Below are positions 3,656 through 63,432 of a stretch of 64,000 bases of DNA, piece after piece (positions within the stretch are counted from its first letter, which is position 1; each line of letters starts with the position of its first letter). The stretch covers positions 32,001 through 96,000 of IMG/VR virus record IMGVR_UViG_3300021431_000087; one strand, 5' to 3'. The notes beneath the pieces were generated by a model. That model was not told the DNA's origin and did not search any database. It saw only the letters and a program-made list of their open reading frames with translations. This DNA is from a virus. Its lineage: Duplodnaviria > Caudoviricetes. The translations under genes and the position numbers were made by a program.

Positions 3656-4648
3656 TTAGAAAACAATGTTATTACCACCAAAGCCGTTCCAATTGCCATA
3701 GAAGCCTCCCACAAACGGAGTGGTGTTGACCACCGAAACCTGCGGGTACTCTACGTTAATGGTATTAGGAAGTTTGCACTTGATGTCATCCACTTCCTTT
3801 GCAAGACCTGCGAGCTGTGCGTTCAGTGGAGCGACAGCCTGCTGAACGACACCAGCGGTGAAGTTCTGCGATTTCAGTTGGGCGTTTTCTGCCGTGAGGG
3901 CGGTGATTTCCCTATCCTTACGGTTCGATTCAAGAGCGTCTATCTTGTTGTCGAGGGCGAGGAAGTTCCGGTTCATAGTATCGGTAAGTCCGTATGTTTG
4001 CTGACACATAGCCAACTGGTCGGAAGCCGCCTTTGATGCGATGGACTGCTGTACGCCTGCGAAGCCCTGCTGTGCTGCGACAGCGTTTGCGTTCAAGCCC
4101 TGCTGAAGCGCATTAGTCTGTTGGCACATAGCCAACTGATTCTGGCAGCAGCACTGCTGGAACTGAGCGCCAAGGCTTGCGTTTCCATTCTGGATGGCGT
4201 TAATGACCTGCAGGGCATTCATACCCTGATTTGCACTGATGGTATTCAAAGCATTCTGAATACCCTGAATCGAGGCGTTTACTAAATTGAAATCCTGCCC
4301 GAGCATGGTACTCAGCGTCTGTGTTGCCGTGCGGGAAGCCTCGCCTTGGTTGGTGATAGCCTGCATGATAAGTTCTCTACCCGTGTCATTGCTGATTTGA
4401 TTGGAGAGGAAACCTGCAGCACCGTTAACGCCACCATTACCGCCAAATCCGAACCCTCCGCCGTTGTTCCATCCGAAGATAGAAGCCACGATGGCGAGCG
4501 TGATAAGGCCTCCGATGTCATTGCCGAAACCATTACCTCCGAAGATGCCTCCGCCACCGAAGCCACCCACGGGGATAGAGAACGGAATGTTTCCGAATCC
4601 TGCATTTCCAGAATTGCTTTCCGGAATTTGATAAATTTCTGAAGCCAT
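3656..4648 (-). CDS. Gly/Asn-rich protein with TM segment, CCC motif and coiled coil
   Basis: GGFGGGGIFGG, hydrophobic LITLAIVASIFGW, QQCCCQNQ; promoter box at 4706-4713. Confidence 0.65.
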   Translation of the reverse strand: MASEIYQIPESNSGNAGFGNIPFSIPVGGFGGGGIFGGNGFGNDIGGLITLAIVASIFGWNNGGGFGFGGNGGVNGAAGFLSNQISNDTGRELIMQAITNQGEASRTATQTLSTMLGQDFNLVNASIQGIQNALNTISANQGMNALQVINAIQNGNASLGAQFQQCCCQNQLAMCQQTNALQQGLNANAVAAQQGFAGVQQSIASKAASDQLAMCQQTYGLTDTMNRNFLALDNKIDALESNRKDREITALTAENAQLKSQNFTAGVVQQAVAPLNAQLAGLAKEVDDIKCKLPNTINVEYPQVSVVNTTPFVGGFYGNWNGFGGNNIVF

Positions 4649-31800: not shown

Positions 31801-33648
31801 TTTTGATTGTTTTTCGGCTTTCTTGGCTTCGGATGGAGTGACAAACTTTACTTCAACACAAGCCGACCACCCGTCATCCCAATGGTAATAAAAGCGACCC
31901 TCTTTGAGATTGGGATAAATAGGTTTACCTCTCATGGTAGCCGTGCAAGTCATCGCATAAAAACGACCTTCACCACTCCATTTCCCGTTCCAACTACCCA
32001 CACCAGGCATGGTAAGGATAAAAAGAGCTTTTGTCTTCTTTTCTTCTTTCATATTATCATTTCTTTTCAAATTTCTCACACGGCTTTCCATATAATGGTG
32101 CGCAATAGAACAAGCCATTTTCTTCCTTCGGTTTCAGTTCGCATACCATTGTATCATAGTACTGTCGTCTGAAGGTGCGCCCTTTGACCCTATGCTTGCA
32201 GTCCTTACACCGGTATTCGTTCGGTGCAAGCTTTTTGCTCTTTCGCTTGTACACTACCACCGTCCTGCCGACAATCTTTGCCGTGCAATCATCTGGGATA
32301 GTGTATTCTCCTTCTTTCAAGTCATCCCGCGTAGGCTCTTCTTTCATATCAAAGGGATTGTACGGCATATCCTCTTCTCTTACACCTGCCGCCTTGCAGA
32401 CACGATAGACGACCTCGTCAAGGCTCGCACATTTGGGATTGGAATAGATGCCCCACGCTTTCGCACAGTCGGCACAATCATCATTTGTTATGCCGTCTAT
32501 GGCTTTGCCAGCAATATCAGCCTCCCACAGTCTCTTAAACTCTTCCTTTGTGTAAACCATATTTTATTCTACTTTATAAAGATAACATGTTTCGTCTGCC
32601 GTCGTGATGAACACCACATCGGGAACGACAAGGTTGAAAACCATTCTATTGAAGGTCTGAATATACGTTGCCCTCGGTTTTATCTCCCCTTGGGTTATCT
32701 GCTTTACTATCGGCTGATATATGCTGCCCTTACGGAAAACATAAAGCGACTTCAACAAATCCTTTGCCTTTGCCATACACTTCTACTTTTTAAACAGACC
32801 AATCTTTATCATTATAATGGCAATACACCTTGTTCCCTTCCGTTCCATTGCAATATTTGCAAGTGTCACAGTTCTTTCTTTTTAATGTGCAACTGTCTGC
32901 CACTATTCGAATTCGACGCATTTTCATATATCAATCCTCCAATTCTACTTCACGACTACGCATGATGTTATGGATAGCTTCTCGGCACTCTTCAGTGTCG
33001 GCCTCCATAATAAGCCTGCGGAACGTGCTCCTGTAGGTGGTCTCGTAGGCTTGCTCTAACAATTCTTTGTCCTTTTCTGTCATAATTCAAAATATATCTT
33101 GTTCGTCTACTGCCATCCCATCGTGGATGAGCCCCATAAAGTCGAACTTGCGCTCACAAAGCCATTTTACACGTTTAAAGGACGGAGTGCTTGCAAACAT
33201 ATCCAAATCCCCGTAATGAGGTAATTTTGCGTATTCTTTACGCTCTTCTATTGTCATGCTCTCCATCGTCCGAAGTATAGGTTTCACAAACTCTACGTGA
33301 AAATGCTGCGTGCCAAGGAATGCCTTCTCGCCTATAGGCACGCACTCTACCGAGCCACGATACACATCTATGGATTGCAACTTACAAGGAAACTCCTGAA
33401 AGTCGTGCTTGACCTTCAAGCCGTAGGGCGCATACAAGCATAAGGCAGAAAGTCTCTCCCTAATCTCTTCCTTTGTCATTTTCTTCGCCCTCTCCTTCTA
33501 TTGTTAATATTATCAATATTGTGGCTACACTTTTCGCATGGGTGATAGCCAGATTCGAACCAATTCCACCCCTTATACCGAGTGCATTGCTCGATAACTG
33601 GGAACACTTTACATTTATATGAATCGTCCATAATTTTTATTTTTCAAT

Positions 33649-52892: not shown

Positions 52893-53981
52893 ATGGCACA
52901 CAATCTTGAAATCAACAACGGCGTAGCGTCCTTCGCAGAAAACGGGCGCAAGGAGCGTGCATGGCACGAATTGGGACAGGTATTTGACCGTCCAATGACC
53001 GTCAAGGAGGCACTGGAGGCTTCCCACGCCAATTATGAAGTCACGCTAAACAACGTGGCGGTGATAACCCCTGCAATAGCCGAGGCAATGGCAACGGGCA
53101 ACGTTCCCGCAGACCTTCTCCTTGACGCAATGGTGAGCGGTAAGAAAGCCACACTCCGCACGGACAAGAACAAACCTCTTGGCATCGTCGGCGATAGCTA
53201 CGGCATCGTACAGAACATCGATGCCTTCACGTTCATCGACACCCTCTGCACGGGGCAGGTCGGTGACCACGTTCCCGTCATTGAATGCGCAGGGGTGCTC
53301 GGCAGTGGCGAGCGGGTTTTCATAACCGCAAAGTTCCCTGATGACATCATCCTCGACAACAAGGGCGACGACAAGGTAGAGATGTATATGATGTTCACCA
53401 CCTCTCACGACGGAACGGGAGCAGTCAAATGTGTCGTCAGTCCAGTGAGGACGGTCTGTGAAAACACGATGCGAATGGCTCTCGCCCATAACGCCGGCAT
53501 GCTTTCCCTCCGCCACTCATCAAACATCATGCAGCGGCTTGACCTGACTTCCAAGGAAAATACCGAGTTCGCTTTCAAGGCACTCAACCTTATGAAGGTT
53601 TACAAGAAATCCCTTGAGCAGAGGTTTGACCATCTGCGCAACATTAAGATTGCGGAGCAAGACCTCGACCGTATCCTGGCAGAGGTAGTGCTTTCCGAGA
53701 AATCGATGGAAACGTACCGTAAGTTCGGCACGATGGAACACGAGGATATCCCCACCCAGTCCAAGAACACCTTCGAAGCTATGAAGATGGCGGTGGAGAA
53801 CGGTATAGGACAGGAATATGGCGAGCGAGGAACTGGATTGTGGGTCATGAACGGCATCACGTCGTACTACCAAAACAATGCTACTTGGCGCAACGAGGAA
53901 ATCAAATTCGACAGCATTCTGCACGGTTACACCTCCAAGAAGGTGCTCGATGCCTGTCTTGCCGTAGAGAACCTATTATAA
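52893..53981 (+). CDS. DUF932 family protein
   Basis: MAHNLE..AWHELG..Y.IVQN..SHDG..VCENT. Confidence 0.85.
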   Translation: MAHNLEINNGVASFAENGRKERAWHELGQVFDRPMTVKEALEASHANYEVTLNNVAVITPAIAEAMATGNVPADLLLDAMVSGKKATLRTDKNKPLGIVGDSYGIVQNIDAFTFIDTLCTGQVGDHVPVIECAGVLGSGERVFITAKFPDDIILDNKGDDKVEMYMMFTTSHDGTGAVKCVVSPVRTVCENTMRMALAHNAGMLSLRHSSNIMQRLDLTSKENTEFAFKALNLMKVYKKSLEQRFDHLRNIKIAEQDLDRILAEVVLSEKSMETYRKFGTMEHEDIPTQSKNTFEAMKMAVENGIGQEYGERGTGLWVMNGITSYYQNNATWRNEEIKFDSILHGYTSKKVLDACLAVENLL

Positions 53982-54207
53982 GAAATCTCCATCCACGGGA
54001 GGTTTCGGCTGCCCAACCTGCTCTGGGTAGCCATTTTTTGCTAACTTATGATAACTGGTTGCCCATTTGTGATAAGGTATGCTAAACTCTTGCTAAATGA
54101 AGCTAAATTGCTCGCCTAAACGATTGTTTTTCAACCGTTTGCAATTACCTTTGCATCGAACCCTTAGAGGCCAAGAGCGCAAGGCCATAACACGGCGCAG
54201 CAAGAGT

Positions 54208-55116
54208 ATGAATACTACAAAGAAGTCATTAAGCGAGCAGGTAAACGAAGTGTTGAAAAGCAGGATGAGCCGCCCCAAGAAGCAGGAGGCCATCGTAAAG
54301 CTCGGCGTTACTCCTTTTGAGGCAATGTGCCTTGTGAGGAGTTACATGCCTGCCCCACGCCCACTACCATTCTCCTACACCTTCGGGGTAGAAATTGAAT
54401 GCGTAGGATGCCGATACACCGAGTTCTTCGCAGCAGCACGCCGCAACGGACTCGAGGTGATGGATCAGGTATACTACAACCACAGGGACATCCCCCAATT
54501 CAAGCTGACCACCGACTCGAGTATCAGCGGGCACAATCCCGCCGAGTGCGTCACCCCTGCCTTGAACGGCAACGACCAAGGTTTCGAGAGCCTCAAGGCT
54601 TGCTGCAAGAGCCTTCGGGAGATTGGCGCTACGACCAACTCCTCCTGCGGACTCCACGTACACATCGGGGCTGCAAGCCTTACCGACCTTGAGTACTGCA
54701 ACGTCTTCGTCAACTACATGAGGATGGAGACCGCCATCGAGAGCTTTCTTGCCCCGAGCCGCCGGGGTAGCTACGCAAGATGGTGCAACAGCCTCCGCAA
54801 CCACGAATACGGTGTTCTTCACGCCACCACGAAAGAGCAGATGCGCTACGCCTTGAACAGCGACCGCTACCACAGGGTAAACCCCTGCGCCTACGCCGCC
54901 CACAAGACCATCGAGTTCAGGCAGCACCAAGGCACTGCGAACTACACCAAGATAAGCCACTGGGTTAAGTTCTTGGGCAAGCTCGTAGAGTTCAGCAAGA
55001 CTACCCGCCTTAACGCCGACATCAACCGCATCGAGGACATCCCTTTCTTGAGCGAGAACGATAAAGCCTACTTCTGCAGCCGCAGAGCCGAATTCGAGGC
55101 TCGTGCCGCTCGGTAA
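54208..55116 (+). CDS. amidoligase (COOH-NH2 ligase type 2) family protein
   Basis: TFGVEIE, DSSI..ECVTPAL, SCGLHVHIG, RY..VN, TIEFRQH; promoter at 54146-54153. Confidence 0.9.
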   Translation: MNTTKKSLSEQVNEVLKSRMSRPKKQEAIVKLGVTPFEAMCLVRSYMPAPRPLPFSYTFGVEIECVGCRYTEFFAAARRNGLEVMDQVYYNHRDIPQFKLTTDSSISGHNPAECVTPALNGNDQGFESLKACCKSLREIGATTNSSCGLHVHIGAASLTDLEYCNVFVNYMRMETAIESFLAPSRRGSYARWCNSLRNHEYGVLHATTKEQMRYALNSDRYHRVNPCAYAAHKTIEFRQHQGTANYTKISHWVKFLGKLVEFSKTTRLNADINRIEDIPFLSENDKAYFCSRRAEFEARAAR

Positions 55117-55219
55117 CCACGGAGAGGCACAACTACCCCACCCGAGCGCAAAGAGCGCAACGGCGGGGCAGAAAACGGCAAAATATAGAAAATTAAAGTT
55201 TAACATCATTAAATAGACT

Positions 55220-55735
55220 ATGATAAAAGAAGAATGGAGACCGATAAAGGATTACGAAGGACTTTATGAGGTTAGCGACTTAGGCCGGGTTCGCTCTTTA
55301 AGAAACAAAAATCGCATCCTTAAACCTTCAAATAATCAAAACGGCTATCTGCAAGTGACCCTAAGCAAAGACAATAATATACAGGCGCTTCTTATCCACC
55401 GTCTTGTAGCAAATGCTTTTCTTGACAATAAACAGAATCTGCCACAAGTAAATCATATAGATGAAATTAGAACAAACAATTTTGTTACCAACCTCGAATG
55501 GGTTACAGCGAAACAGAACTTGAAGCATAGCAACGTCTGTAAAGTTATGAAAGCCGCTGCCGTAAAAGCTTTGGAGAAACCCGTTAATATGTATAACATG
55601 TATGGTGAGTTTGTGAAAAGATTTGAAAGTGCAACGAAAGCTGCGGACTTTATTGGTGGGTATCAACAGAATGTTAGTGCTTGCTGTTACGGCAAAATTA
55701 AATCCTACAAAGGATATGTATTTAGATTTGTTTAA
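55220..55735 (+). CDS. NUMOD4-HNH homing endonuclease
   Basis: EEWRPIKDYEGLYEVSDLGRVRS; HRLVANAF..VNHIDE..NN..NLEW. Confidence 0.92.
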   Translation: MIKEEWRPIKDYEGLYEVSDLGRVRSLRNKNRILKPSNNQNGYLQVTLSKDNNIQALLIHRLVANAFLDNKQNLPQVNHIDEIRTNNFVTNLEWVTAKQNLKHSNVCKVMKAAAVKALEKPVNMYNMYGEFVKRFESATKAADFIGGYQQNVSACCYGKIKSYKGYVFRFV

Positions 55736-55771
55736 CGATTAAATTAAAATAAAATAGAAAGGATAAACGTT

Positions 55772-56323
55772 ATGTGTGTAATAATAATTTCCCCAGCGGG
55801 TCATGCCCTCCCCACCAAGAAAGAGCTGAGGGCAGCGTTTAAGCGTAACCACGACGGATGCGGATTCGTCAGCGAGAGTGACCACTACAAGAGCCTCGAT
55901 TTTGAGGATTTCTACGCAAGGCTAAAGAAAGTCCCGAAGAACGAGAACTGCATCATCCATTTCCGGTGGGCTACCCACGGCAAGGTGTCCCTTGCCAATT
56001 GCCACCCGTTCTATGACGAGAAATCAAATACGTGGTTCATGCACAACGGCATCCTCGCCATCACACCCTACAAGGGCAAGACGGACAGCGAGACGGCTTT
56101 CAAGAAATACCTCGTCCCTGCTATCCGCACGTACGGTCTCTACTCGAAAGAGCTGCAGACCATCGCTCATAACATCATAGACTCGTCCAAGTTCGCATTC
56201 ATGCAGAACGGGCAGATTAAGACCTTCGGACGGTTCATTGAATACAATGGCTGTTACTACAGCAACCTATACCACCTGCCATACACCGCCTTCATCCAGA
56301 ATAGGTGGACGTACGCAGGTTGA
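55772..56323 (+). CDS. class II glutamine amidotransferase
   Basis: N-terminal MC, NHDGCG, HFRWATHG, NCHPF, HNG, TDSE. Confidence 0.9.
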   Translation: MCVIIISPAGHALPTKKELRAAFKRNHDGCGFVSESDHYKSLDFEDFYARLKKVPKNENCIIHFRWATHGKVSLANCHPFYDEKSNTWFMHNGILAITPYKGKTDSETAFKKYLVPAIRTYGLYSKELQTIAHNIIDSSKFAFMQNGQIKTFGRFIEYNGCYYSNLYHLPYTAFIQNRWTYAG

Positions 56324-58329: not shown

Positions 58330-59079
58330 TCATATCTCAAAACATTTATCTAATCTGAATCCGTTCATCTGTCCTTTGTGTTCCACGTAGCCGAGCTGAT
58401 TGCATATCACCTCCGTGTTGAACACCTTGCAGTTGATGTTCGTATGCGAGTGTCCGTAGACCCAATAGTCAATCCTTCCGTCCTCCATCAGATAGTGAAG
58501 GTCGGTGGCAAAGGCAGACCGCAGCGGGCTTGTGAGGTGTTCCGTGGCTATCGTCAGCAGAGACGGTGAGTGGTGGGTGACAACAACGATATGCTTGGCG
58601 GTAGATGCCTCGACCATTTCCTTTATCATTCTAACGCAGAACTCATGCTCGTGCCTATACACATGCGGAGTCAGTCTATAATCTCCAAACTCTATCATTC
58701 GGAAATCATTCAAGCCACATTTTACAGAAAGTTCATGTTCTGGTGCAATGTCAGACCATAGCGTGGAGAATATGAAATCCGTATCTTCTATCCGAGCAAC
58801 TTTATTCTGATAGTATGCAACGTTAGAGTATATTGGCTTAACGAAACTTTCAGCATAGTCTGCAAGGTTACTACCATAGAACTCATGGTTTCCTGGCACG
58901 GCAAGCACATGTTTGTAATTCTTTCCTGCCCATTCCCAGAACCAAGCACAATCCTCTATGTACATAACATCTCCAGCAAGCAGAAGTATGTCTCCTGCCA
59001 CTTCCAACGGATTCTCACACAGCCACTCTCGGTTGGCTCGGAACTCCAAATGTAGGTCTGATGCGTATTGAATCTTCAT
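58330..59079 (-). CDS. calcineurin-like metallophosphoesterase
   Basis: SDLH, LAGD, PGNHE, THH, GHSH. Confidence 0.92.
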   Translation of the reverse strand: MKIQYASDLHLEFRANREWLCENPLEVAGDILLLAGDVMYIEDCAWFWEWAGKNYKHVLAVPGNHEFYGSNLADYAESFVKPIYSNVAYYQNKVARIEDTDFIFSTLWSDIAPEHELSVKCGLNDFRMIEFGDYRLTPHVYRHEHEFCVRMIKEMVEASTAKHIVVVTHHSPSLLTIATEHLTSPLRSAFATDLHYLMEDGRIDYWVYGHSHTNINCKVFNTEVICNQLGYVEHKGQMNGFRLDKCFEI

Positions 59080-59090
59080 TGCCTTTTATT

Positions 59091-59585
59091 TTAAGCATCT
59101 GCAAACACCTTCCCGTCATCAAGTGTTACTTGCAATTTCGTGTACTCACAATGGAATCTTTCTTTTAGTTTCCAAAAATAACGCCTACACGCCAACTTGC
59201 AGGCTTGCAGGTCATGAAGAAGATAGTTGCCACATGTCTCTGGTGTTGTGGCGGGCACTTCCTCTTGCTCGCTTATCCACCGTAGACACTCCATCGTCAG
59301 ATAGCGCATTTTCTCTACATCATATCCTTTGCGCATGATAACGTACATTCCCGTCAAGCACCCCATCGGGCCTACATAAACCACGTCATCCTTTACCACG
59401 CTATTCCTGAACCACGTAGCCATCAAGTGCTCGATGCTGTGCATGGCCGCAGGAGCGATGGCAGGCTCCTTGTTCGGCTCCGTGAAACGAAGGTCAAAGG
59501 TCGTAAAATCCTTATCCTCACGGGAAACATATATCCCCGGCTTCAACTTTGTGTGGTCAATCGTAAAACTTGCTATCGCTTCCAT
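59091..59585 (-). CDS. luxS: S-ribosylhomocysteine lyase (AI-2 synthase)
   Basis: SFTIDH, HSIEH, GPMGCLTGMY, CGNY..H. Confidence 0.95.
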   Translation of the reverse strand: MEAIASFTIDHTKLKPGIYVSREDKDFTTFDLRFTEPNKEPAIAPAAMHSIEHLMATWFRNSVVKDDVVYVGPMGCLTGMYVIMRKGYDVEKMRYLTMECLRWISEQEEVPATTPETCGNYLLHDLQACKLACRRYFWKLKERFHCEYTKLQVTLDDGKVFADA

Positions 59586-60274: not shown

Positions 60275-60844
60275 ATGAAAACGTTAAAATTCCAAATTAC
60301 GGGTACACGGCCTTTGATGCTGAATAACCCGCGAACTGTCAACCCATTTGACAAGTATTCAAAACTATTGAAGCCGCTGACGAGCAAGCGCACCAAGACC
60401 GAGGACGACCTCATGGAGATTTCCCGCCTCAAGTTCCTTGCCAGTTTGTACGTTGACGAAAAAGGTTATTTCCTCCCTCAGGAGTGCATCGAGCGTAGTA
60501 TTATCGAAGCCGCCAAGGAGCGCAAACTCGGCAAGAAGTTTGAGCGCAGTTTCAACGTTATCGACCGTGCACCGCTTGACTTCAAGGACAACAAAAAGAA
60601 GCCTGAGCAACTTTTCGATATGGGTAATATGTACGTCGATGTCCGAGCCGTAGGCATCAAGAACGCTCGTATCACCACCACACGCGCCATCATTCCGAAC
60701 TGGAGTGCCACCTTTGAGTGCTGGTTTGACGAAACCCAACTTGACGAGAAGGAGGTGCTTGACGTGTTGGAGATTGCTGGTCTTCGCTATGGTGTCGGCA
60801 CGTACCGCCGCCTCTACGGACGATTCTCTGTGAAGAAGATTTAA
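60275..60844 (+). CDS. RAMP/Cas7-like RNA-binding protein (stand-alone, phage-encoded)
   Basis: N-terminal FQITGTRPLML, YFLPQECIERSI (IP-x-S-like) and C-terminal Gly loop GVGTYRRLYGRF; adjacent periodic RNA array. Confidence 0.65.
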   Translation: MKTLKFQITGTRPLMLNNPRTVNPFDKYSKLLKPLTSKRTKTEDDLMEISRLKFLASLYVDEKGYFLPQECIERSIIEAAKERKLGKKFERSFNVIDRAPLDFKDNKKKPEQLFDMGNMYVDVRAVGIKNARITTTRAIIPNWSATFECWFDETQLDEKEVLDVLEIAGLRYGVGTYRRLYGRFSVKKI

Positions 60845-60855
60845 CGCTTCATATT

Positions 60856-61443
60856 TGCAGAGTAGTATAGCAATGCGTAGAAGAACTCCCGTGACGGATT
60901 CCTTGCCGTGGTTCGACCCCACGGGCGGGAGCTATTCTCAGCTAAGTTTAGTAGAGCCTTGTGTAGACGAGACGAGTTTTGTTTAGCAAAGTTATGCGCA
61001 GTTTAGTTAAGACGAACTCCCACAATGGTTGTATGTAAGGTTCGATTCCTTCAGTGGGAGCATTTAGTCCAGATTCGTAAAGCACAGTGGAGTGTAGTAC
61101 AGTATGGCTCAGTTGAGAGAAGTTTAGTTCAGACCTGTACAGCAAAGACGAACTCCTATCATGGTGCAAGCATCGGTTCGATTCCGATGGTAGGAGCAAA
61201 AAGTTAAGTTCGGATTAGCAGAGTCCAGCGAAATATAGTTTAGCAGAGTAAAGAAGAACCCTCACTATGGTACAAGCCGTGGCTCGATTCCACGGGTGAG
61301 GGCAAAAAGTCCAGCAAAGACCAGTATAGCGAAGTGGTGTCTTGTATGGCTATGCAAAGCCATCCAAAGTTTAGCAAAGAACGGTTAAGTAAAGACGAAG
61401 GCAGTAACGGTTCACGTTGGGGTTCGATTCCCCGAACTGCCCA
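60856..61443 (+). ncRNA. array of 5-nt-periodic guide-like tracts separated by five mini-tRNA-like hairpins
   Basis: Tracts 60940-61014, 61066-61150, 61202-61256 and 61308-61397; hairpins 60886-60931, 61017-61060, 61153-61196, 61259-61302 and 61400-61441. Confidence 0.85.
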
Positions 61444-61473: not shown

Positions 61474-61947
61474 ATGGAGAATAAAAAAGAATTGACGGCA
61501 GAGGTGCTTAATCCTCTGATGGCTGAAATAGCCGAAAAGTTTGGTGACGGTGCGCTCATTCCTCACGAATGGCTGCGCAAGAAGTTCGACATCAAAGATC
61601 CTTCAATGGCTGACTGCGAAAGCGAAGAGGACTTTATCGCCAGACTGCGTGAGCAGCAGTTCCTCTATATGGGGTGCATCGACCAACTGCGATGGGCAAT
61701 GCTTCAGAAAGAGCAAATGTACCTAAAGAACGAGTGGGGTGACGGATATTCCATCCTACTGCCAACAGAGCAGGTTTCTTTCGGCTACAACGAGTTTGTG
61801 AAGACCATCAAGAAAGCCACTAAAGAAGCGGATGCCATCATCAATAATGTGCGCCCCGTTCCCGACATCAACGCTGCGAAAGACAATGACATTCGTGCAA
61901 GGTTCGGGATGATGCGTGATATGCTGGCAAGCATAAAGAAAAGATAG
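61474..61947 (+). CDS. hypothetical partner protein of the RAMP-array locus
   Basis: Co-directional with the RAMP gene and array; LKNEWGDGYSIL resembles a wHTH wing. Confidence 0.6.
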   Translation: MENKKELTAEVLNPLMAEIAEKFGDGALIPHEWLRKKFDIKDPSMADCESEEDFIARLREQQFLYMGCIDQLRWAMLQKEQMYLKNEWGDGYSILLPTEQVSFGYNEFVKTIKKATKEADAIINNVRPVPDINAAKDNDIRARFGMMRDMLASIKKR

Positions 61948-61980: not shown

Positions 61981-62012
61981 AGCCTGTCCGTGATGGATAG
62001 GCTCTGCTTTTT
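61981..62012 (+). terminator. intrinsic terminator closing the RAMP-array operon
   Basis: AGCCTGTCC-GTGAT-GGATAGGCT followed by CTGCTTTTT. Confidence 0.65.
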
Positions 62013-63432
62013 ATAGAAAATCTGACAATATTTGATCGTCAGACGCACCGCCTACAACCCCTCCTCTTTCAATAATCATCGTAAGGACATCTTCTGCGTC
62101 ATCATGTGCATTTCTTCCTTCCTTTCGGTAACTTTTCACGGATGAAGCGAACTCTGGCCATCGACGTTCCCAATCCACAGGAAATACAATCATATTGTTT
62201 ACTTCACAAGCCCTTGTGAAGATTCTGACATTTTTGTTGTGGTGCTGCGTGAAAGTAATAAAAGTCGTTTTGTGGTTTTCGTACTCACGACTTATACGTT
62301 CCACGTTTCTGGCAAAAGCCCTGCCTCCATTATTTGATTCAATGACACAATACCTTATCTCATATTTCGCTAAATCCTGCGCCAACATTTGTTCCGTTGC
62401 CTCTTGGCTTTTCTTTGTGTATATAACACTCGTCACGTAGTATCCATCTTTCATTGAAAGGTAGGTTATGCTACACAAATAATCCTCGCCAACATCTGCG
62501 GTGTCGCAACAACAGCACATTGTCCCCAGCTTGACGGGAGGTAAAACTTCATAAGTACGAAATGCGTGCTCATAAAGCAAGCCTTCTAAAGGCATAGGAT
62601 TTTGTTGGTATTGTGTTTGAAAAACATACGAATTGGCAGCATTTATCTTATCAAGTTCCTCAAGTGTATGCTTGTATGGCCACAGTGCTTCACGCTCTCC
62701 GTTCTCGTTTATCTGTATAACTGGCAGTGATATCACCCGCCACTCGTCTGGTTCTATTTCCTGCAAATAGCCGCAGAGGTCATGCTCATGCAAACGCTGC
62801 ATGATAATGATAATGGGTGTGTTACGGGAATTGACGCGGTTTCTGATTGTTGTTTCAAAACGTCGGTTCACACGCTCACGGACAACATCGGAAAGGGCAT
62901 CCTCCGGCTTGATAGGGTCATCGATAATGATCGCGCCACCAAAACGATACGGTTCACATTCCCTTTCGACAAGACCAGCACCGAAACCCGTAATCTGACC
63001 GAGCGTAGATGTGGCGTACAAGCCACCTCCTTGGTCGGTTTCCCACTGAGATTTCATATTCTTTCCGTAGGTGATACGGGTAGGATAGAGCCGTTGATAT
63101 TCTTCGTTTTGAACTATATTTTTTACGGCAATAGAGTTGTCTTGTGCAAGGTTGGCAGAATAAGAGAGGTGGATGAATTTGGCAGAAGGATTGACGGCTA
63201 ACCCCATAGCAATGAAGTTCTTTACTGCAAGTTCCGTTTTTCCATACCTCGGCGACAAATTAATAATAAGTTTATTACATTTTCCGTTAAGGACATCATC
63301 AAGGGCATCACAGATAAGCTTGTGGTGCCTGCCTATGATGAACTTCATGTCGTTGTTCTGCTTGAAGAAGTACCTTGTGAAGTTAAGGGAACTCTTCAGC
63401 GTCCAAGCCCTCAAAATGTCCGTGTCTGTCAT
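62011..63432 (-). CDS. terL: terminase large subunit
   Basis: Walker A SPRYGKT, IIIDDPIKP, MQRLHEHDL, YQQNP, ESNNGG, HDDAED. Confidence 0.95.
   Translation of the reverse strand: MTDTDILRAWTLKSSLNFTRYFFKQNNDMKFIIGRHHKLICDALDDVLNGKCNKLIINLSPRYGKTELAVKNFIAMGLAVNPSAKFIHLSYSANLAQDNSIAVKNIVQNEEYQRLYPTRITYGKNMKSQWETDQGGGLYATSTLGQITGFGAGLVERECEPYRFGGAIIIDDPIKPEDALSDVVRERVNRRFETTIRNRVNSRNTPIIIIMQRLHEHDLCGYLQEIEPDEWRVISLPVIQINENGEREALWPYKHTLEELDKINAANSYVFQTQYQQNPMPLEGLLYEHAFRTYEVLPPVKLGTMCCCCDTADVGEDYLCSITYLSMKDGYYVTSVIYTKKSQEATEQMLAQDLAKYEIRYCVIESNNGGRAFARNVERISREYENHKTTFITFTQHHNKNVRIFTRACEVNNMIVFPVDWERRWPEFASSVKSYRKEGRNAHDDAEDVLTMIIERGGVVGGASDDQILSDFL

Follow-up and report, generated by a model that had tools for sequence, protein, structure and literature searches.

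VIPR (Viral Interference Programmable Repeat) systems were described in 2026 preprints (bioRxiv 10.64898/2026.04.26.720920,.720927, 2026.10.15.759431) and have been characterised mainly in phages of E. coli and Pseudomonas. They consist of Vipr, a minimal RAMP protein, the accessory gene vap, and vrRNAs built from GGY-NN pentamers with a structured tail, of which the NN bases alone pair with double-stranded DNA (dsDNA) while every third target base, usually the wobble base of a codon, is skipped (10.64898/2026.04.26.720920). For the SUSP1 complex, this code and the binding of dsDNA were shown experimentally, with silencing from either strand; perturbed NN pairing abolishes silencing, and there are no self matches of at least 80% (10.64898/2026.04.26.720920). 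Repeat consensus forms related to GGY, such as YNNNG, are allowed (10.64898/2026.04.26.720920). In SUSP1, GGY>AGY was among the substitutions tested, and perturbation of GGY abolishes silencing (10.64898/2026.04.26.720920). To count as a natural target in the published analysis, a site must match at least 80% of NN, which corresponds to 13/16 for the guide at 61066-61150 that is considered below.

Organisation of the locus and its relation to type II VIPR

Judged by its sequence, the locus studied here is a VIPR system and a new example of the kind published in 2026. It lies in a stretch of 64,000 nucleotides (positions 32,001 to 96,000 of IMG/VR record IMGVR_UViG_3300021431_000087; hereafter the window) and combines a Vipr homolog, tandem 5-nt repeats with an AGY consensus, structured tails and an adjoining vap gene, without self-targeting at or above 80%. 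Five units, each made up of consecutive pentamers and, 3' of these, a structured element of about 46 nt, are situated between an ORF of 189 aa and one of 157 aa, all on the + strand. The features, in window coordinates, are the following.

60275..60844, + strand: vipr gene, encoding a 189-aa RAMP (Cas7-like) protein, the effector expected to coat the pentamers, with matches to PDB 36pp_D, wV8 gp096 and phrog_4652
60859..60932, + strand: short first tract (60859-60884, 4-5 pentamers) and tRNA-like tail 1 (60886-60932), based on pentamer layout, tail alignment and pair counts
60935..61061, + strand: guide tract 60935-61014 and tail 2 (61017-61061); in antisense, an amidoligase C-terminus with stop codon
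61066..61150, + strand: guide tract of 17 AGY-NN pentamers, third run of the array (tract 2 of the initial annotation); amidoligase motif in antisense
61153..61197, + strand: tRNA-like tail 3, the 3' element of guide 61066-61150, based on covarying pairs across the five tails
61202..61303, + strand: guide tract of 11 pentamers and tail 4, based on pentamer layout and tail pairing
61308..61443, + strand: last guide tract (18-19 pentamers, interrupted internally) and tail 5, based on pentamer layout and tail pairing
61474..61947, + strand: vap-like accessory gene, 157 aa, with matches to wV8 gp095 and phrog_5926
61981..62013, + strand: terminator-like hairpin with a T run, closing the unit
54523..54570, + strand: partial 9/16 site in the resident amidoligase gene (54097-55116), below the targeting criterion

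The first tract, with so few pentamers, lacks the length of a normal guide and may represent either a leader or a remnant. Within the last tract, several pentamers at 61338-61362 begin with T or G in place of A, and this interruption surrounds a small palindrome (ATGGCT ATGCAA AGCCAT); the tract may represent two guides or one degenerate guide. Elsewhere in the window, a gene for LuxS (S-ribosylhomocysteinase) is encoded on the - strand at 59091-59585 (Pfam E 4e-45), adjoined by a metallophosphoesterase gene (58330-59079).

The locus resembles the type II VIPR of Escherichia phage SUSP1 and Felixounaviruses (Vipr, vap1, vrRNAs; PDB 36pp) in its homologous Vipr and accessory gene, in guides that each consist of 5-nt repeats (three bases fixed, two hypervariable) and a structured tail, in the one-base-skip code on codon positions 1-2, and in having targets in competing mobile elements (predicted here) without self-targeting. 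It differs from SUSP1 in its source, an uncultured phage of about 124 kb, and in that the whole array is placed between vipr and vap. The repeat is AGY (A at position 1 in 52/67 pentamers) whereas that of SUSP1 is GGY, the tail is a tRNA-like acceptor/T-arm minihelix instead of a pseudoknot, and the predicted target is the amidoligase gene of temperate phages, whereas SUSP1 is directed against a satellite. As in class 1 CRISPR-Cas, in which Cas7 assembles on crRNA, a RAMP protein would polymerise on the guide RNA with its thumb periodically interrupting the pairing. Unlike in these systems, there is no repeat-spacer array, cas1 or cas2, the guide is noncontiguous, and the period is 5 with 2 pairing bases as opposed to 6 with 5. 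A repeat search revealed pentamer tracts and diverged tRNA-like elements only, and no array of identical direct repeats with contiguous spacers.

The 189-aa protein aligned over residues 1-187 of 189 with the PDB entry 36pp_D, 'SUSP1 Vipr protein' (phmmer E 1.1e-28), matched phrog_4652, and was 37% identical over its full length to wV8 gp096, the gene of which is flanked by GGT-NN runs with a conserved tail. The vap-like protein matched phrog_5926 and showed 23% identity (E 5e-9) to wV8 gp095, whose gene directly follows vipr in that phage. Two IMG/VR phages (L087 and L088) with a Vipr 64% identical to the one described here possess vipr, AGT-NN runs with tRNA-like ends, and a clear vap homolog at the same position, and two GC-rich, more distant relatives have GGC-NN runs. 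An extra tRNA-like minihelix is found 3' of the vap gene in L088 (3290-3345), where it is not preceded by a pentamer tract.

The residues H17 and D177, which are reported to read G1 in SUSP1 Vipr, correspond to N17 and T176 in the protein studied here. Among the reported contacts to G2, Y3 and the skipped base, R138, R179, K33 and E71 are unchanged and W178 is replaced by Y. Since the changes to N17 and T176 coincide with an A at repeat position 1, we propose a coherent specificity switch, in which the altered pocket would set the specificity for AGY. Because perturbation of GGY abolishes silencing in SUSP1, the function of AGY repeats here would depend on this altered protein pocket.

The tails have the appearance of the acceptor and T arms of a tRNA. 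In tail 3, an acceptor-like stem of 7 bp is joined, through 12 nt that include a conserved GG, to a T-like stem of 6 bp with the loop TTCGATT, and a discriminator C is also present; in general, the tails have a T-like loop TTCGAYY and an acceptor-to-T linker of 12-13 nt. When 13 pairs are compared over the five tails, pairing is retained at 96.9% and 10 of the 13 show compensatory changes; none of 500 shuffles was as good. ARAGORN predicted no tRNA gene in the window, where a cloverleaf with an anticodon arm was not found, and near the tails Rfam returned a weak, sub-threshold match to the tRNA-like mascRNA family for tail 5 alone. Based on their structure, the tails would be recognised by the host RNase P and RNase Z, whose cleavage would release the individual guides from the array. 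In this respect the locus is similar to the hammerhead-ribozyme-interspersed VIPR arrays, cited in the text of 720920 (fig. S19), in which structured RNA likewise stands between guides, probably for cutting of the array. The element would be a tRNA mimic that needs host RNase P and RNase Z in the present phage, as compared with a self-cleaving hammerhead ribozyme in those arrays. No mention of tRNA was found in the running text of the VIPR preprints (720920, 720927, 759431) and of one supplement.

The guide tract at 61066-61150 and its amidoligase match

From position 61066, the tract reads AGTCC AGATT CGTAA AGCAC AGTGG AGTGT AGTAC AGTAT GGCTC AGTTG AGAGA AGTTT AGTTC AGACC TGTAC AGCAA AGACG. 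It is thus composed of in-phase units of the form (A/N)-G-(not G)-N-N, with G at position 2 in 17/17, A at position 1 in 14/17 and G at position 3 in 0/17. In every tract the AG dinucleotides recur strictly in a 5-nt phase, and over the whole array (n = 67 pentamers) position 2 is G in 64/67 and position 3 in 0/67. Positions 4 and 5 are almost random, with entropies of 1.92 and 1.97 bits over the same 67 pentamers. The 5-nt period is incompatible with coding. The fold of the tract was no better than that of shuffled sequence (z 0.06), and neither Rfam nor ARAGORN gave a match for the tract itself.

Decoded in antisense, the 16 NN dinucleotides give [FL]-V-G-[DE]-[NK]-S-[HQ]-[DE]-[IM]-V-T-P-V-[FL]-[NK]-G. 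The reverse-complement series listed in the initial annotation was reproduced exactly, and its match to the phage's own amidoligase was upheld: codon positions 1-2 of ISGHNPAECVTPALNG (54523-54570) agree with the guide in 9/16 dinucleotides and 22/32 bases, and this is the single best site both in the window and in the entire record of 124,194 bases. The accompanying estimate that such a match would arise by chance at a rate of about 0.01 proved too low, as order-shuffled guides reached 9/16 anywhere in the window in 8/300 cases and in 4/100 cases of a second set, which corresponds to 0.03-0.04. Taken alone, the resident match is only marginal evidence. Since it is below the targeting criterion, the resident amidoligase is probably spared by this guide. 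No guide of the array reached 80% NN anywhere in the phage's own 124-kb record, the best self matches being 7/16, 9/16, 6/11 and 10/18, which is consistent with the published absence of self-targeting by VIPR (paper 720920). The resident gene is part of a module (52893-56323) that comprises, in order, DUF932, amidoligase, an HNH/NUMOD4 homing-type endonuclease and a class-II amidotransferase; in the rival phages the amidoligase and amidotransferase genes adjoin without the HNH gene.

At the protein level, 236 amidoligase homologs were scored against the decoded residue classes. In nearly all of them, the best-scoring window was the same conserved motif. Members of the resident subfamily matched 8-10/16 residue classes, and 12-13/16 were matched in a subfamily that is about 47% identical to the resident protein and includes members source-labelled Prevotella sp., with motifs such as LVGENSQEVVSPILNG and LVGENSQEVVSPVLSG. 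A score of 13/16, which refers to the protein level only, was obtained for seven members of the P0107/P0132 subfamily, among them P0132 and P0235.

At the DNA level, the set consisted of 81 amidoligase loci, 80 from IMG/VR and one from a sister phage. The best site, at 4331-4377 of locus L011, matched the guide in 12/16 dinucleotides and 27/32 bases, and five further loci among the 81 reached 10/16; every time, the site was the homologous one and the guide was antisense to it. When 200 shuffled guides were run over the amidoligase loci, the score was typically 8 and at most 11 (once), and none reached 12. A skip of one base gave 12, whereas skips of 0, 2 and 3 gave 7, as did the guide read backwards. 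It is from this comparison that the match derives its significance, 12/16 being reached at the homologous site in amidoligase loci and at most 11 by 200 shuffles. The proposal that the tract encodes the conserved amidoligase motif is therefore supported, since homologs of another subfamily surpass the 9/16 of the resident gene and the matches exceed those of shuffled controls. Equally, the observation that the NN series falls on codon positions 1-2 with the wobble base skipped agrees with the published one-base-skip code of VIPR, one base being the sole skip length with a signal; this signal keeps the reading frame, the skipped base falls on the wobble position, and the best scores are 12/16 for DNA and 13/16 for residue classes.

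In the target family, conservation is 0.69 at codon position 1, 0.85 at position 2 and 0.39 at position 3, and the footprint of the guide includes the invariant residues G121, E126, V128, P130 and L132. When 13 family members are compared, 15 of the 16 guide dinucleotides are present at their own position in one or more of them, and the sixteenth (Val, position 2) is found in proteins. The decoded peptide is a mosaic of variants from different family members and is complete in no single one.

Predicted targets, their carriers and the other guides

No DNA target with an NN match of at least 80% was found in IMG/VR, the GTDB genomes, the JGI metagenomes or the amidoligase loci, the best match being 75% (12/16). 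Exact gapped patterns for guide units 2-12, 8-17 and 5-14 (10-11 consecutive dinucleotides) each gave 0 matches in IMG/VR, and a relaxed IMG/VR scan with 12 dinucleotides fixed recovered the contig of L011 alone. Among the GTDB genomes, a single Blastochloris gene was hit, which has a weak, sub-threshold Roadblock/LC7 match, no amidoligase domain and a score of 10/18 that did not extend, and was rejected as a chance match together with two matches of the same kind in the JGI metagenomes. A protein search restricted to the motif region added no new sequences, and close relatives of the target subfamily were absent from the phage and plasmid collections.

The gene order in L011 is Terminase_3 large terminase, SPP1-type portal, amidoligase and class-II amidotransferase, and in the IMG/VR classification two of the target-bearing contigs are proviruses and another is a genome of 57 kb that has terminal repeats. 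These classes and the gene order of L011 indicate that the carriers of the target are temperate siphovirus-like phages, unlike the phage studied here, which has a genome of about 124 kb and a T7-type terminase. The seven rival contigs, searched as whole records (139 kb), contained no pentamer arrays, and the sole guides that matched them were the two amidoligase guides; the other two long tracts did not. As amidoligase relatives carry Prevotella and Bacteroidaceae labels, the host probably belongs to the Bacteroidales. No vipr homolog was found in the sister phage L001 (IMGVR_UViG_3300028048_003164, 119,607 bases, amidoligase 94% identical), the record of which is estimated to be 75% complete.

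The second amidoligase guide is the tract at 60935-61014, which in antisense gives x-K-A-Y-F-[NK]-[NK]-R-R-T-[SR]-L-[NK]-stop; this is how amidoligases of the same subfamily end at the C-terminus, stop codon included. The tract matched 12/16 dinucleotides at the end of the gene in L007 (4826-4872) and 12/14 residue classes in P0181 and P0221, proteins that end in QKAYFNNRRTALN or QKAYFNNRRASLN; shuffled guides did not exceed 10, and the signal was seen at skip 1 alone. Since both this tract and that at 61066-61150 decode to the same amidoligase, two of the five guides address one gene, and both are antisense to its coding strand. The best resident match of the last tract (10/18) lies at 62549-62601 in the terminase gene and is sense. 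The initial annotation had described the orientation of the tract at 61066-61150 as opposite to that of its tract 4, and this was borne out, the former being antisense to the amidoligase mRNA and the last tract sense to the terminase gene; such opposite orientations fit the dsDNA targeting shown for the homologous system. For the tract of 11 pentamers (61202..61303), the best matches were no higher than those of shuffles.

Interpretation and alternatives

Our results suggest, with a probability of roughly 0.8, that the tract at 61066-61150 is the guide part of one phage VIPR vrRNA aimed at the amidoligase of a rival. In the proposed mechanism, a single transcript would span vipr, the five guides and vap, and cleavage at the tRNA-like elements would divide it into guides. 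By analogy to the solved homolog, one Vipr protomer would occupy each pentamer, with A-G-Y buried and the two variable bases presented, and the 16 presented dinucleotides would pair with dsDNA, each third base being skipped. The computationally predicted target strand is the coding strand of the amidoligase gene, with the codons L-V-G-E-N-S-Q-E-I-V-T-P-V-L-N-G from the most conserved stretch of the family, and because it is the coding strand, the skipped base would be the wobble base. The allele type specified appears to be that of the Prevotella-type temperate phages and not that of the resident gene. As in the homologous system, binding would be expected to block transcription of the rival amidoligase and the genes downstream of it, while the guide at 60935-61014 would act on the 3' end of the same gene.

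Other explanations of the tract were weighed against this one. A guide that is real and was once directed against amidoligase may by now be obsolete, the exact allele having been lost or having escaped by mutation, as could be suggested by the best DNA match of 12/16 and by a decoded peptide that is a mosaic absent from any single member. However, the DNA of the relevant subfamily in the searched databases amounts to nine IMG/VR loci. The guide also retains an intact repeat and tail and shares its target gene with another guide, and we consider obsolescence unlikely. Pairing with the amidoligase mRNA rather than with DNA would be geometrically possible, given that both amidoligase guides are antisense, but is quite improbable: the best match of the last guide is sense to its gene, and for the complex of the homologous SUSP1 system binding of dsDNA was shown, with silencing from either strand.

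A regulation of the resident amidoligase through the partial 9/16 match appears more improbable still. Although no other site in the phage genome matches as well, the resident site amounts to 56% NN, below the 80% level of natural targets, better matches are found in homologs of other elements, perturbation of NN pairing abolished silencing in the published experiments, and according to the same paper no self match passes 80%. Finally, the resemblance to amidoligase could be fortuitous, the NAG repeats being TRAP-like sponge sites for an oligomeric RNA-binding protein and the NN bases meaningless. TRAP binds (G/U)AG triplets that are 2-3 nt apart, and the resident match alone, with p ~0.03, would leave some room for coincidence. 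However, 0/200 shuffles reached 12/16, the matches occur in frame at the homologous motif and with skip 1 alone, the tract at 60935-61014 decodes to the end of the same gene with its stop codon, and the adjoining protein is a Vipr homolog. The sponge with meaningless spacers, which we find scarcely credible, was dropped because the NN bases decode in frame to one gene family.

Beyond the reading of this tract as an amidoligase-directed guide, a broader and distinctly more tentative proposal, which we would rate at somewhat less than even odds, is that the phage forms a VIPR clade with L087 and L088, in which AGY is read by way of H17N/D177T, tRNA mimics serve as punctuation, guides are freed by the tRNA-processing enzymes of the host, and two of the five guides are directed against a rival amidoligase. 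If true, such arrays would parallel in nature the tRNA-guide arrays that have been engineered, with tRNA-like elements as array punctuation. An AGY repeat that occurs naturally, in combination with changes at precisely the two residues reported to read G1, offers a testable rule for repeat specificity. The advantage of skipping the wobble base is illustrated by the target family, in which codon positions 1 and 2 are far better conserved than position 3. The locus would extend the one-base-skip code to an uncultured phage, probably of Bacteroidales, with a concrete predicted target in the amidoligase gene of rival phages, comprising its conserved core and the region around its stop codon. If the proposal is correct, it would also mark the amidoligase-amidotransferase module as important to these rival temperate phages.
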